Shown piece by piece: positions 29,338-38,010 of a DNA stretch of 64,000 nt (position 1 is its first letter; every line of letters starts with the position of its first letter). The position numbers and the translations under genes are program-made. This stretch comes from Escherichia coli. GTDB taxonomy: Bacteria; Pseudomonadota; Gammaproteobacteria; Enterobacterales; Enterobacteriaceae. A model generated the notes under the pieces. That model made no database searches and was not told the origin of the DNA. It saw only the letters and a list, made by a program, of their open reading frames with translations. The stretch lies in NCBI RefSeq assembly GCF_003334335.1, contig NZ_QOWQ01000028.1, one strand, 5' to 3'.

Positions 29338-29628
29338 TCACGGCATCAAACCATTGAACAGACGTTTTTTACGCGGCCCGGTCATTAAAGATTCCAGTTT
29401 CGCGACACAGGTTTTGTAGTGGGGCGTGGTTTTATGGAACGCCACTGCGTCTTCATCTTTATAGGCTTCGTAGATATAAAAGCGCGAATTCACTTCCGGG
29501 TCCTGTAAGACATCGAAGCGCAAATTGCCTTCTTCCTGTACAGAGCCCAGGTGGTTCTGGCGAAAAACTTCGATAAACTCGTCAACCTTGTCTTCATGAA
29601 CGTTAATTTCAACCAGTGTGACGTGCAT
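29338..29628 (-). CDS. lsrG: Phospho-AI-2 isomerase LsrG
   Basis: 96 aa ORF at the 3' end of the lsr operon. Confidence 0.9.
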
Positions 29629-29651
29629 AATTCTTCTCCTTAGATCCGCAG

Positions 29652-30527
29652 TTACTGTTTTTCACTCAGATAGAGTTCATATGCCCGATCAGCCGTTTCG
29701 TTATGGTGAACCACCGCCTGTACGGCTTTCATCATCGCCACCGGATGGTCAGACTGGAAAATATTACGCCCCATATCCACACCAGAAGCGCCCTGATCGA
29801 TAGCCTGCCAGCACATTTCCAGCGCCTCGCGCTCCGGTAATTTTTTACCGCCAGCAATAACAATGGGTACCGGACATCCGGCAACAATCCGTTCAAAACC
29901 TTTTTCGACATAATAGGTTTTGATAATTTGCGCCCCCATTTCAGCGGCGATTCGAGTCGCGAGCGAGAAATAACGCTGATCGCGCACCATATCTTTGCCC
30001 ACGCCAGTCACGGCCATGGTCGGCATTCCCACTTTCATTCCGGCATCAACCAGCTGAATAATATTTTTGATCGACTGATGTTCATATTCGCTGCCGATAT
30101 AAACCTGCGCCGCCACCGCGCAACTGTTCAGGCGCACGGCGTCATCCATCGATAACGCCACGGCTTCATTACTTAATTCCGCCAGAATAGAGTTCGCACC
30201 TGACGCCCGCAGTACCACCGGCCTATTGGTCGCAGGGGGAACTACGCTGCGCAAAATGCCGCGCGTACACATTAATACATCGGCATGTTCAAACAGCGGG
30301 GCGATATTTATATCAATGCGTTCAAGTCCGGTAGTCGGTCCCTGAAAATAACCATGGTCAAAAGCCAGCATCACGGTTTTACCCGTTTTCGGATTAAATA
30401 TCCGCGATAAGCGTGACTGCATTCCCCAATCCAGCGCACCGCAACCTTTCAGGGTAAAAGGGATATTTTTTTGCGGTTGATCGGTACGAAAATCTTTACC
30501 ATCTTTAATATCGTCTAAATCTGCCAT
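29652..30527 (-). CDS. lsrF: Aldolase-family thiolase LsrF
   Basis: 291 aa class I aldolase-like ORF. Confidence 0.9.
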
Positions 30528-30553
30528 AACTTACTCCGGTTAAGTAATGCACA

Positions 30554-31576
30554 TCAGAAATCGTATTTGCCGATATTCTCTTTGTTGAATATCACGCGCT
30601 CCGGTAACAGTACGATGCCATTACCATCCGCTTCGTAGTCATAGCCCTGAACGCTGTTTGGCGAGACTTCAACCTGACCTACGCCCTTGATATCCAGCTT
30701 GTCGCCCGTTTTCATTGATCCTTTTTTCAATAATGCATCCGCGACATACACTGAAATTTTGCCTTGCTGAACCACATCCCACAGGCCAAATTCTTTCACC
30801 GTGCCGCGCTCTACATACGGGCGCATCACATTTGGCGTACTGAATCCGACAATCGCTACTTTGTCATTTTTCAAGTTTTCTGCGGCTTGTGCGGCAGCGG
30901 GCAGGGCGTTGGCATCGGGGGCGATAATGGCGTCGAGATCGCTATACGCTTTTAATATTCCTTCTGCGGTTTGTAACGATTTAGTGGCATCGTTATAGCC
31001 AAACTGCGTAGTGACAATTTCCCAGCCTGGATGCTCTTTGGCGATTTTCGCTTTCGCTTCTTTCACCCACTGGTTTTGGTCCGTAACGGTGGGGCTTGAG
31101 TAGAAAAACGCGACTTTGGCTTTGTCTTTATTCACCTGACGCGCCGCCATATCCACCAACATACCTCCTAACTGGGCGGGCGTTCCCTGATTAATGTAGT
31201 AAGAGCGGCACTCCGGTTTAGTATCAGAGTCCCAGGTCAGCACTCTCACACCACGTTGCATGGCGCGTTTCAGTGCCGGACACAAGCCATCAGGCGAAAC
31301 CGCAGAAACGATAATGGCGTTATAACCTTGATTGACGAAGTTATTAATCAACTGTACCTGACCAGAAACACTGGGTTCTGTCGGCCCGTCGTAGGTCACA
31401 TCAACGCCCAGCTCTTTACCCGCTTGTTGTGCGCCGTTGCCACCGCTGGTAAAAAATCCCACGCCAACCAGTTTGGGAATAAATGCAATACGCTCTGCGG
31501 CCTGCACATTCATAGAGATTGCGGCAATGCCAAGAGCGCTAAGTAAGGCGATTTTCTTAAAGCGATGAAGTGTCAT
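30554..31576 (-). CDS. lsrB: Periplasmic AI-2 binding protein LsrB
   Basis: 340 aa ORF with signal peptide, periplasmic-binding-protein fold. Confidence 0.9.
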
Positions 31577-35137: not shown

Positions 35138-35385
35138 ATTTCCCCCGTTCAGTTTTGCAGGTGAGTTTTGAACAAATGTATTTCTGCTTTTAATTTGTTC
35201 ATAACCTTAGGTGGACATTGCACATATTTCCGACGAATAGATCACAATTTATGCTATTTTGATTTTCACGGTTGCGTTTGTTCATGCTCGTAGAGTCAAA
35301 CTGTGGTTGCCATCACAGATATAAATGAGCAAGAACTGAACAATTGCATTAAAGATTTAAATATGTTCAAAGTGAAGAATGAATT
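35138..35385. promoter_or_regulatory. Divergent lsrR / lsrA promoter-operator region with a CRP-like site
   Basis: AT-rich 248-bp intergenic region; TGTGG-N6-TCACA at 35302-35317. Confidence 0.6.
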
Positions 35386-36339
35386 ATGACAATCAACGAT
35401 TCGGCAATTTCAGAACAGGGAATGTGTGAAGAAGAACAGGTCGCGCGGATCGCGTGGTTTTACTATCACGACGGGCTGACCCAGAGCGAGATCAGCGATC
35501 GTCTCGGCCTGACACGTTTGAAAGTGTCGCGATTGCTGGAGAAAGGGCATCAGTCCGGCATTATTCGCGTACAGATTAATTCTCGCTTTGAAGGCTGTCT
35601 GGAATATGAAACTCAATTACGTCGTCAGTTTTCGCTGCAACATGTCCGGGTGATCCCTGGGCTTGCGGATGCTGATGTCGGTGGGCGACTGGGGATAGGC
35701 GCGGCGCATATGTTGATGAGTTTACTTCAACCACAACAGATGCTGGCGATTGGTTTTGGCGAGGCAACCATGAATACGCTGCAACGCTTAAGTGGTTTTA
35801 TTTCGTCACAGCAAATTCGCCTGGTCACGCTCTCCGGTGGCGTCGGTTCTTATATGACGGGAATCGGGCAGCTTAACGCGGCGTGCAGTGTGAATATTAT
35901 TCCGGCTCCGTTGCGGGCATCCTCCGCTGACATTGCCCGTACGCTAAAAAATGAAAATTGCGTCAAAGATGTTCTGTTAGCCGCGCAAGCAGCGGATGTG
36001 GCGATTGTCGGCATTGGTGCTGTGAGTCAACAGGACGATGCGACAATCATTCGCTCCGGTTATATCAGCCAGGGCGAACAGTTAATGATTGGCCGAAAAG
36101 GGGCGGTTGGCGACATTTTAGGCTACTTTTTTGATGCAAAAGGTGACGTTGTCACGAATATCAAAATACATAACGAACTGATTGGCTTACCTTTAAGCGC
36201 GCTGAAGACCATACCCGTCCGGGTTGGCGTGGCAGGGGGAGAAAATAAAGCCGAAGCAATTGCCGCTGCAATGAAAGGCGGTTATATCAACGCACTGGTT
36301 ACCGATCAGGACACAGCAGCGGCGATTTTACGTAGTTAA
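35386..36339 (+). CDS. lsrR: SorC/DeoR-family repressor LsrR
   Basis: 317 aa ORF, N-terminal HTH plus sugar-phosphate-binding domain. Confidence 0.9.
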
Positions 36340-36417
36340 ATTTGCATGACCTTATTACCGGGAATGATGGAGAACGTATAGAGGAACAGACAGAACGCAT
36401 AAGCCGAGGATAATCTA

Positions 36418-38010
36418 ATGGCTCGACTCTTTACCCTTTCAGAATCAAAGTACTACCTGATGGCGCTGGATGCAGGCACCGGAAGTATTCGGGCTGTGAT
36501 ATTCGACCTGGAAGGCAATCAAATAGCAGTGGGACAGGCGGAGTGGCGGCATCTGGCAGTACCGGACGTTCCTGGTTCTATGGAATTTGATCTCAACAAA
36601 AACTGGCAACTGGCGTGTGAGTGTATGCGCCAGGCGCTGCACAACGCCGGCATAGCCCCGGAGTATATCGCTGCCGTTTCGGCATGTTCGATGCGTGAAG
36701 GCATTGTTTTATATAATAATGAAGGAGCCCCGATCTGGGCCTGCGCCAATGTGGATGCCAGAGCGGCACGCGAAGTTAGCGAACTTAAAGAACTGCACAA
36801 CAATACCTTTGAAAACGAAGTTTATCGCGCGACCGGACAAACACTGGCTTTAAGTGCCATCCCCAGATTACTTTGGCTGGCGCACCATCGTTCCGATATT
36901 TACCGTCAGGCATCAACCATCACCATGATCAGCGACTGGCTGGCCTATATGCTCAGCGGCGAACTGGCGGTGGATCCCTCTAACGCTGGCACCACGGGAC
37001 TTCTTGATCTAACCACCCGTGACTGGAAACCTGCATTGCTGGATATGGCTGGCCTACGTGCCGATATTCTTTCTCCTGTCAAAGAAACCGGCACATTGCT
37101 GGGCGTGGTAAGTTCACAAGCGGCGGAACTCTGCGGTCTGAAGGCGGGCACTCCGGTGGTCGTTGGAGGAGGCGACGTGCAGCTTGGTTGCCTTGGGTTA
37201 GGCGTTGTGCGTCCGGCACAAACCGCGGTTCTTGGCGGCACATTCTGGCAGCAAGTTGTAAATTTAGCCGCGCCGGTGACAGACCCAGAAATGAACGTGC
37301 GCGTTAATCCTCATGTTATTCCTGGCATGGTACAAGCTGAATCTATAAGCTTTTTTACCGGACTCACCATGCGCTGGTTCCGCGATGCTTTCTGTGCCGA
37401 AGAAAAACTGATTGCCGAACGTTTAGGCATCGACACCTATACGCTGCTGGAAGAGATGGCCAGTCGGGTGCCGCCTGGGTCGTGGGGCGTAATGCCGATC
37501 TTCTCCGACAGAATGCGCTTTAAAACCTGGTATCACGCTGCGCCTTCCTTTATTAACTTGTCCATTGACCCGGATAAATGTAACAAAGCGACATTGTTCC
37601 GTGCGCTGGAAGAAAATGCGGCGATTGTATCAGCGTGTAACTTGCAGCAAATTGCTGATTTCTCGAATATTCATCCTTCATCGTTAGTCTTTGCAGGCGG
37701 AGGTTCAAAAGGGAAATTATGGAGTCAAATTCTCGCTGATGTCTCGGGATTACCCGTCAATATTCCGGTGGTCAAAGAAGCCACTGCATTAGGATGTGCC
37801 ATTGCAGCTGGCGTCGGTGCCGGAATTTTTTCATCAATGGCAGAAACCGGAGAACGCCTGGTTCGCTGGGAACGGACGCACACACCAGACCCGGAAAAGC
37901 ATGAACTTTATCAGGATTCACGCGATAAGTGGCAGGCAGTTTATCAGGATCAGCTGGGGCTGGTTGATCATGGACTGACGACGTCGTTATGGAAAGCGCC
38001 TGGGTTATAG
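36418..38010 (+). CDS. lsrK: Autoinducer-2 kinase LsrK (FGGY carbohydrate kinase family)
   Basis: 530 aa FGGY-kinase-like ORF. Confidence 0.9.

Follow-up and report, generated by a model that had tools for sequence, protein, structure and literature searches.

The window (the whole stretch of Escherichia coli DNA that was analysed, 64,000 nucleotides) contains eight lsr genes arranged in two divergent groups. The minus strand carries lsrA (33602..35137), encoding a 511 aa tandem-domain ABC ATPase (NF011967, 958.3 bits vs a cut-off of 586), lsrC (32580..33608; 342 aa ABC permease; NF011961, 666.1 bits vs 388), lsrD (31588..32580; 330 aa ABC permease; NF011612, 597.3 bits vs 500), lsrB (30554..31576; 340 aa periplasmic AI-2 binding protein; NF011937 equivalog, 700.1 bits vs 384), lsrF (29652..30527; 291 aa 3-hydroxy-5-phosphonooxypentane-2,4-dione thiolase; NF006081, 559.9 bits vs 297) and lsrG (29338..29628; 96 aa (4S)-4-hydroxy-5-phosphonooxypentane-2,3-dione, i.e., phospho-AI-2, isomerase; NCBIfam NF007791 equivalog, 191.8 bits vs 135). 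On the opposite (plus) strand, 248 bp away from lsrA, lies lsrR (35386..36339), which encodes a 317 aa SorC/DeoR-type repressor (NF011947, 618.6 bits vs 486) that matches the solved LsrR structures 4L5I and 4GO1 over the full length (E = 1e-203); 78 bp past lsrR starts lsrK (36418..38010), encoding a 530 aa AI-2 kinase of the FGGY family (NF008187, 1000.9 bits vs 528). All eight Lsr products exceed their NCBIfam equivalog cut-offs, the full-length importer components LsrA, LsrC and LsrD among them, and all eight ORFs are full length and free of internal stops. The stop region of lsrA overlaps the start of lsrC by 7 nt (ATGCTGA; GTCATGCTGAAG), and the ATG of lsrD and the stop codon of lsrC have base 32580 in common (TAATG; CATAATGCG). 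An initial annotation of the same DNA had already assigned lsrACDBFG to the minus strand and lsrRK to the plus strand and had proposed both translational overlaps (7 nt for lsrA/lsrC, 1 nt for lsrC/lsrD); its ORF limits prove exact, the equivalog models agree with its assignments, and both overlaps were found. Its description of the locus as intact holds for the reading frames only, which are complete, because LsrC bears a rare Leu177Pro replacement.

The locus differs from that of E. coli K-12 MG1655 by two single-base changes in ~8.7 kb, one synonymous in lsrA and the other responsible for Leu177Pro in LsrC. The gene set, gene order, overlaps and intergenic lengths are all those of the MG1655 lsrRK / lsrACDBFG-tam cluster (b1511-b1519), and LsrC is the only Lsr protein that differs between the two strains; Tam and the other seven Lsr proteins, which are identical, have K-12 counterparts that were studied experimentally in the case of Lsr. 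By gene, lsrG corresponds to b1518, lsrF to b1517, lsrB to b1516, lsrR to b1512 and lsrK to b1511. This similarity extends over nearly the entire window, with positions 1555-64000 being 99.87% identical to MG1655 1572625-1635073. The same genes are found in the RefSeq annotation of a strain with 100% identity over the locus. Taken together with the control elements described below, we consider it almost certain that this locus represents the canonical Lsr system of E. coli, located on a K-12-like chromosome and controlled by the repressor LsrR and by cAMP-CRP activation through two boxes.

The only amino acid difference from K-12, LsrC L177P (window base 33079), raises an alternative view, namely that the locus only looks intact, with Leu177Pro weakening or abolishing AI-2 import, such that the lineage would be a natural AI-2 non-consumer. 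The replaced residue is Leu in all 28 orthologues from other species and directly precedes the conserved TAFGR loop. Furthermore, the Pro177 allele is rare: an exact 61-mer of it is present in 31 of 4012 E. coli genomes, whereas the K-12 allele is found in 3040 of 4013. E. coli often loses Lsr function (PMC3595036), and in 23% of the complete E. coli genomes at least 80% of the lsr locus is missing. Against this view, the strains with the Pro177 allele come from pigs, humans and a civet and thus represent a circulating lineage, in which the lsr locus is free of any other lesion. Prolines at helix ends are, moreover, often tolerated. On balance, we regard a loss of import through this replacement as unlikely.

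The gene downstream of lsrG is tam (28523..29281, minus strand), which encodes trans-aconitate 2-methyltransferase (NF002463, 447 bits vs 297). The initial annotation gave the 56-bp gap between lsrG and tam correctly but had tam converging on the operon. Convergence is ruled out by the strand: tam lies on the minus strand like lsrG, in tandem with it, and the same arrangement is seen in strain PK6 and in MG1655. The gene that does converge on tam, at a distance of 3 bp, is yneE (27605..28519, plus strand). A scan for terminator-like hairpins found none in the 56-bp lsrG-tam gap, and the terminator scan found none after lsrG, tam or lsrK; the name lsrACDBFG-tam is in use for the transcription unit (PMC8085971). 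Outside Escherichia, tblastn searches did not find tam after lsrG in any of the loci that extend past lsrG. A functional role of tam in the Lsr system was rejected given this absence of linkage to lsr outside Escherichia, and tam persists in E. coli genomes from which lsr has been lost; tam is a neighbour and not a conserved member of the system. In the nearby autotransporter pseudogene, the disruption lies at another poly-G tract than in MG1655; poly-G tracts are located at 42371-42377 and 42495-42501.

The region between lsrA and lsrR (35138-35385) is 248 bp long, the length given in the initial annotation, and is 100% identical in MG1655. It contains two LsrR operators, both 33-bp TGAACA...TGTTCA inverted repeats that are unstranded and lie 168 bp apart, start to start. 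The lsrA-side operator, hereafter the lsrA-box (35169..35201), is the inverted repeat TGAACAAA-N19-TGTTCA (direct repeat family D1, inverted repeat I2), and p-lsrA-boxes have been named in the literature at this position (PMC5137460). The lsrR-side operator, or lsrR-box (35337..35369), has the form TGAACA-N21-TGTTCA. In PMC5137460, the p-lsrR-box interval is given as -237 to -197 relative to the lsrA start, which corresponds to window positions 35334-35374; the comparison with characterised LsrR boxes that had been suggested earlier places 35337-35369 within this interval, with its AACAAT and AAGATTTAA motifs. The active form of LsrR is a tetramer (EcoCyc paper).

Two CRP boxes lie between the operators. 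The distal box (35302..35317, unstranded), TGTGGTTGCCATCACA, is the CRP-like site that had been noticed in the initial annotation, and the sequence is present at exactly these positions. It matches TGTGA-N6-TCACA at 9 of 10 positions, coincides with the box CRPII of the literature and is the top CRP motif found by FIMO, with a score of 16.9 (p = 8.7e-7; 2026 preprint, Table S4). The proximal box, CRPI of the literature (35231..35246, minus strand), reads TGTGATCTATTCGTCG on the lsrA-sense strand, has one perfect half-site (35242-35246) and a FIMO score of 10.5 (p = 3.8e-5; 2026 preprint, Table S4). The initial annotation was silent on this box and on both LsrR operators. Both CRP boxes are already in the literature: a published promoter figure shows CRPI, CRPII and the p-lsrA and p-lsrR boxes, and up-mutations in TGTGCAAT (35217-35224) have been placed very near CRPI (PMC5137460); a full-text literature search with the exact CRP box sequences gave no match. 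It has been shown that lsr expression needs crp, with a crp deletion abolishing Plsr-gfp activity even without LsrR, and CRP is reported as an activator of both lsrA and lsrR (2026 preprint); the set of Crp-activated genes includes the whole lsr operon (PMC8085971). A search of positions 28000-39000 against Rfam families gave no match.

To trace these elements in other species, loci were fetched by a DNA pattern, the lsrA-box, and four chance matches (L005, L009, L034 and L042) were discarded. Because the loci were fetched with this pattern, lineages with diverged operators (e.g., Salmonella, which was not retrieved) are under-sampled. In other species, 49 loci have the pattern in their lsrA-lsrR intergenic region, and the conservation of the lsrA-box among them is circular because the box was the search query. 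The loci come from Klebsiella, Enterobacter, Raoultella, Rahnella, Yersinia, Pantoea, Ewingella and other Enterobacterales, have the same divergent lsrKR / lsrACDBFG order and encode Lsr proteins that are 60-87% identical to those of the present locus. They share the same four blocks, i.e., the lsrA-box, a GATCACA half-site, a TG-N9-TCACA box and the lsrR-box, with spacing that is fixed within each half of the region. The TG and TCACA of the distal box are invariant in all 46 non-Yersinia loci, where the box precedes the lsrR-box by exactly 25 bp, and the lsrR-box itself is kept in 46 of 46; the T-rich flank of the distal box is also invariant across the 46 species, amid a spacer and surroundings that vary. 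The distance between the GATCAC of the proximal box and the start of the lsrA-box is exactly 71 bp in 46 of 48 loci; the two Yersinia loci have 72 bp. Length variation (0-4 bp) is confined to the stretch between the two CRP boxes in the 46 species. Within Escherichia, alleles keep both distal half-sites and vary in the spacer (TTGCCA, TGGTTA, TGGCTA). Outside this genus, the distal box has a weaker left half, TGCCn or TGTCG, which makes a poor CRP half-site, two mismatches from the consensus, and in most genera only one half-site of the proximal box can be recognised. Yersinia departs from the pattern in having a longer control region, in which the proximal box is the strong CRP site. In Salmonella, a similarly placed TGTGGCGTTAATCACG has been described (2026 preprint, Table S4).

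These spacings suggest, as a tentative reading to which we give somewhat less than even weight, that the lsr control region consists of two rigid modules on a flexible linker, one formed by the distal CRP box and the lsrR-side operator (25-bp offset) and the other by the proximal half-site and the lsrA-side operator (71-bp offset). A simple scan of the control region found no sigma-70 consensus promoter; this blank fits weak, activator-dependent promoters and gives no promoter positions. The candidate -10 hexamers are weak, AAATAT (35359-35364) and TAAGGT (35204-35209, minus strand), and would put the distal box at about -61.5 from PlsrR and the proximal box at about -41.5 from PlsrA, the latter assignment being partly circular because the -10 was sought at the class II distance. 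Given these distances, we infer that PlsrR uses mainly the distal box and PlsrA mainly the proximal one. If the two-module reading is true, site 35302-35317 would chiefly drive lsrRK (class I, at the ~-61.5 distance) and not the transporter operon, PlsrA would rely on the weaker proximal box (class II, at the same partly circular ~-41.5), and sensing (repressor and kinase) and uptake would be under separate catabolite control.

The initial annotation implied instead that a single shared CRP site (35302-35317) activates both divergent promoters, in which case the proximal box would be dispensable. The distal box is indeed by far the better consensus match in E. coli (9/10; 16.9 vs 10.5), and the reported activation of both lsrA and lsrR by CRP (2026 preprint) is in line with this possibility. 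However, 172.5 bp separate the centre of the distal box from the lsrA ATG, so that, if transcription starts near the lsrA-box, this box is too far away to be the sole class I/II site. The proximal GATCAC is unchanged across the 48 loci, in fixed register with the lsrA-box, and belongs to the strong site in Yersinia, and the 0-4 bp variation in the spacing between the boxes implies that helical phasing of the distal box to the lsrA side is not maintained. Sole control by the distal box hence appears improbable.

That TGTGG-N6-TCACA is a chance match or the site of another factor, with CRP acting through the proximal box only or indirectly, is very unlikely: the left half of the box is indeed two mismatches off the consensus in most genera (TGCCn / TGTCG), and chance matches with at most one mismatch to TGTGA-N6-TCACA do arise in 64 kb (six found in the window vs 2.24 expected; six reached in 4 of 100 shuffles), but a 248-bp stretch should hold only ~0.009 of them by chance, five of the six in the window lie between genes, TG, TCACA and the T-rich flank keep their place in 46 species while the spacer and surroundings vary, Escherichia retains the half-sites despite spacer changes, and a published figure marks a CRP box at this position, which also ranks first by FIMO.

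Under the canonical Lsr reading, the system would work as follows, with gene identities, K-12 near-identity, motifs, conservation and fixed spacing computed here, and transport, phosphorylation, derepression and the CRP requirement taken from the literature (pathway roles: PMC3595036, 2026 preprint, PMC8085971, EcoCyc paper). AI-2 would be bound by LsrB in the periplasm, imported by LsrACD, which combines a tandem ATPase with two permeases, and phosphorylated by LsrK. In the presence of phospho-AI-2, tetrameric LsrR is predicted to leave the two 33-bp operators that flank the control region, which would relieve the repression of both divergent transcripts, lsrACDBFG(-tam) and lsrRK; phospho-AI-2 would then be degraded by LsrG and LsrF. 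The necessary activation would come from cAMP-CRP via the two boxes, the distal one locked in position to the lsrR-side operator and the proximal one to the lsrA-side operator. AI-2 uptake and LsrR derepression can be expected to operate in this strain by virtue of its identity with K-12.

The locus was already known, and it is real but ordinary because it is a well-studied cluster nearly identical to that of K-12; its discovery value is small, as it belongs to the best-characterised quorum-sensing loci. The practical value lies in annotation: like ~77% of complete E. coli genomes, that of this strain has retained the Lsr system in full. The points of possible further interest are the rare LsrC Leu177Pro and the question of which CRP box serves which promoter.

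By similarity of its components, the Lsr system is akin to CUT2-type sugar ABC operons with a repressor and CRP (e.g., the rbs ribose operon). The next-best families of LsrA, LsrC, LsrD and LsrB are RbsA, RbsC, RbsB, AraG, AraH and the rhamnose binding protein; LsrK is similar to xylulokinase, and LsrR to DeoR and SorC. The logic is also shared, in that a phospho-inducer derived from the substrate frees the repressor and cAMP-CRP is required (2026 preprint). Unlike in the CUT2-type sugar operons, the substrate of Lsr is a signal, AI-2, the regulator and the kinase are encoded in their own divergent operon, and the inducer is the phosphorylated product of LsrK.

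The eight genes of the lsr locus, which serves AI-2 uptake and processing (29338-38010), have exactly the limits proposed in the initial annotation when compared with the ORF list: lsrG (29338-29628), lsrF (29652-30527), lsrB (30554-31576), lsrD (31588-32580), lsrC (32580-33608) and lsrA (33602-35137) on the minus strand, lsrR (35386-36339) and lsrK (36418-38010) on the plus strand. The junction sequences likewise display the described 7-nt overlap of lsrA and lsrC (ATGCTGA) and the single base common to lsrC and lsrD (TAATG). All eight products and Tam score far above the curated cut-off of their own NCBIfam equivalog models, and LsrR aligns over its full length with solved LsrR structures; a scan of the locus found no Rfam families.

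AI-2 is imported by LsrB together with LsrACD and phosphorylated by LsrK, whereupon phospho-AI-2 releases LsrR and the product is processed by LsrG and LsrF (10.64898/2026.06.09.730415; PMC8085971; PMC3595036). Active LsrR is a tetramer (EcoCyc paper), and LsrK is inhibited by unphosphorylated HPr, according to the literature. Expression needs CRP, said to be an activator of lsrA and lsrR alike; a crp deletion eliminates lsr expression even in the absence of LsrR (10.64898/2026.06.09.730415), and the entire lsr operon belongs to the Crp-activated set (PMC8085971).

The lsrA-lsrR control region (35138-35385) is 248 bp long and contains the CRP-like site TGTGGTTGCCATCACA at 35302-35317, both as claimed. 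At no more than one mismatch, the motif TGTGA-N6-TCACA has six matches in the 64-kb window versus 2.24 expected (~0.009 expected per 248 bp). The same region holds two 33-bp inverted repeats, TGAACA...TGTTCA, 168 bp apart, namely the LsrR operators on the lsrA side (lsrA-box, 35169-35201) and on the lsrR side (lsrR-box, 35337-35369). The latter falls within the p-lsrR-box as published (-237 to -197 relative to the lsrA start; PMC5137460) and includes its AACAAT and AAGATTTAA motifs. The CRPI box has been placed adjoining TGTGCAAT (PMC5137460), a sequence located here at 35217-35224 (minus strand); therefore, the 35302-35317 site is the distal box, CRPII, and the proximal box, CRPI, is TGTGATCTATTCGTCG (35231-35246, minus strand). 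Both box sequences appear in the E. coli rows of Table S4 of a preprint, with FIMO scores of 16.9 (p = 8.7e-7) for the distal and 10.5 for the proximal box (10.64898/2026.06.09.730415); a full-text literature search for the box sequences gave no match. Some FIMO "CRP" matches in that table, e.g., in Klebsiella, Yersinia and E. coli rows, are LsrR operators (TGAACA...TGTTCA, scores about 9), so its per-genome CRP site counts are probably inflated.

A scan that sampled one genome from each species, with the lsrA-box as the DNA pattern, returned 53 loci, and in 49 of these the pattern lies between lsrA and lsrR homologues. The order lsrKR/lsrACDBFG is kept in every locus long enough to show it. 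Alignment across 19 genera reveals four conserved blocks, the lsrA-box (whose conservation is circular evidence, this being the search pattern), GATCACAnTTT, TTTG-N..-TCACA and the lsrR-box. The distance from GATCAC to the lsrA-box start is exactly 71 bp in 46 loci, with 72 bp in the two from Yersinia, and that from the distal TCACA to the following lsrR-box is exactly 25 bp in all 46 non-Yersinia loci. Spacing is thus rigid inside each half of the control region, and the gap between the halves varies by 0-4 bp.

Each CRP box might serve its own promoter. Standard CRP activation positions are -61.5 (class I) and -41.5 (class II). With a candidate -10 element AAATAT (35359-35364), the distal box, centred at 35309.5, would lie near -61.5 of the lsrR promoter; with a candidate TAAGGT (35204-35209, minus strand; T-A-n-n-n-T in other genera), the proximal box, centred at 35238.5, would lie near -41.5 of the lsrA promoter, an assignment that is partly circular. 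Given these placements, both LsrR operators would overlap their own promoters. Both hexamers are weak, and a consensus promoter scan of the control region found no promoter. We advance this division of labor between the two boxes only tentatively, as somewhat less probable than its negation.

The lsr promoter up-mutations TGTGCAAT to TGTACAAT and TGTGCAAT to TGTGTAAT have been ascribed to a putative CytR site (PMC5137460). These changes at 35217-35224 (minus strand) convert TGCAAT, just upstream of the lsrA-box, to TACAAT or TGTAAT, each matching the -10 consensus at five of six positions. A simpler explanation than a CytR site would be that they create a stronger, still LsrR-repressible -10 element.

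The other five CRP-type 16-mers are at 7499, 16485, 27553, 53806 and 54020. Four are intergenic, one in rspR-ydfZ, one in uxaB-yneE (TGTGATCTTAATCACG, which ends 37 bp ahead of the start codon of yneE and has a strain SNP, at 27560, within its spacer) and two, 214 bp apart, in ydeO-ydeN; the fifth is within marB. Counting the lsr site, five of the six matches lie between genes, suggesting that the majority are genuine CRP sites.

The one observation that did not hold is the orientation of tam, which was thought to converge on the lsr operon: tam (28523-29281) shares the minus strand with lsrG and follows it in tandem after a 56-bp gap. The convergent pair is yneE (27605-28519, plus strand) and tam, with 3 bp between them, and RefSeq annotates the identical arrangement in MG1655 and in PK6, a strain 100% identical to the window over the locus. 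Because a scan of the 56-bp gap shows no terminator-like hairpin and the literature names the transcription unit lsrACDBFG-tam (PMC8085971), read-through from lsrG into tam is plausible. Nevertheless, tam is a neighbor of lsr and not a conserved component of the system: none of the non-Escherichia loci reaching past lsrG has tam after it, and tam is retained in E. coli genomes without lsr.

Among 5,426 complete E. coli genomes, at least 80% of the locus is present in one place in 4,174 (77%), and a large group retains just the first 402 query bases, which cover the 5' end of tam, the intervening gap and the final 64 nt of lsrG. These counts agree with the report that luxS is universal, yet many strains have no complete lsr operon (Brito et al., PMC3595036); hence, the intact locus is a genuine polymorphic state, though a common one. 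In many E. coli genomes the match stops 64 nt inside the lsrG 3' end, so that the common deletion spares tam, the gap and an lsrG stub (gap and stub, 29282-29401), in keeping with a published comment that lsrG is the last gene lost (PMC3595036). "Intact" holds for the reading frames, but LsrC bears a rare substitution, Leu177Pro (codon at 33079), immediately ahead of the conserved TAFGR loop, in place of a Leu invariant in 28/28 orthologues. Among about 4,000 E. coli genomes carrying lsrC, the exact 61-mer of the Pro177 allele occurs in 31/4,012 and that of the K-12 allele in 3,040/4,013.

Adjoining lsrK is a large autotransporter gene (38541-43960, plus strand) corresponding to the K-12 pseudogene yneO, annotated in PK6 as "ECSE_1600 family autotransporter". 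In the window, a G7 tract interrupts this gene: the ORF stops at 42449 after 1302 aa and continues in another frame. The lengths of two plus-strand G tracts (42371-42377 and 42495-42501) are the sole difference among near-identical strains, G7/G7 in the window, G8/G7 in PK6 (intact 1806-aa CDS) and G8/G8 in MG1655 (pseudogene), and could reflect either phase variation through slipped-strand mispairing or sequencing error in homopolymers. The leftmost part of the window (1-4274) is within the Qin cryptic prophage; 190-1554 (tail-fibre and nohA region) has no equivalent where it would be expected in MG1655, and SNP density versus MG1655 is high to ~4274, with only about 20 differences in the remainder.

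Apart from tam, the initial reading of the locus was correct. The analysis directly establishes which parts the lsr system has, that these are nearly identical to K-12, and that their geometry is conserved. Window 1555-64000 is 99.87% identical to MG1655 1572625-1635073; the lsr locus differs by two single bases, one synonymous in lsrA and the other causing LsrC Leu177Pro, the control region does not differ at all, and 29000-38300 is 100% identical in several complete genomes. Both CRP boxes, like the locus and its regulators, have been described before. In operator-anchored stacks, the distal box has an invariant TG and an invariant TCACA, and its spacer and surrounding sequence are variable. 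Escherichia alleles preserve both half-sites and differ in the spacer; in loci from outside Escherichia, the left half reads TGCCn or TGTCG, which makes a poor CRP half-site.
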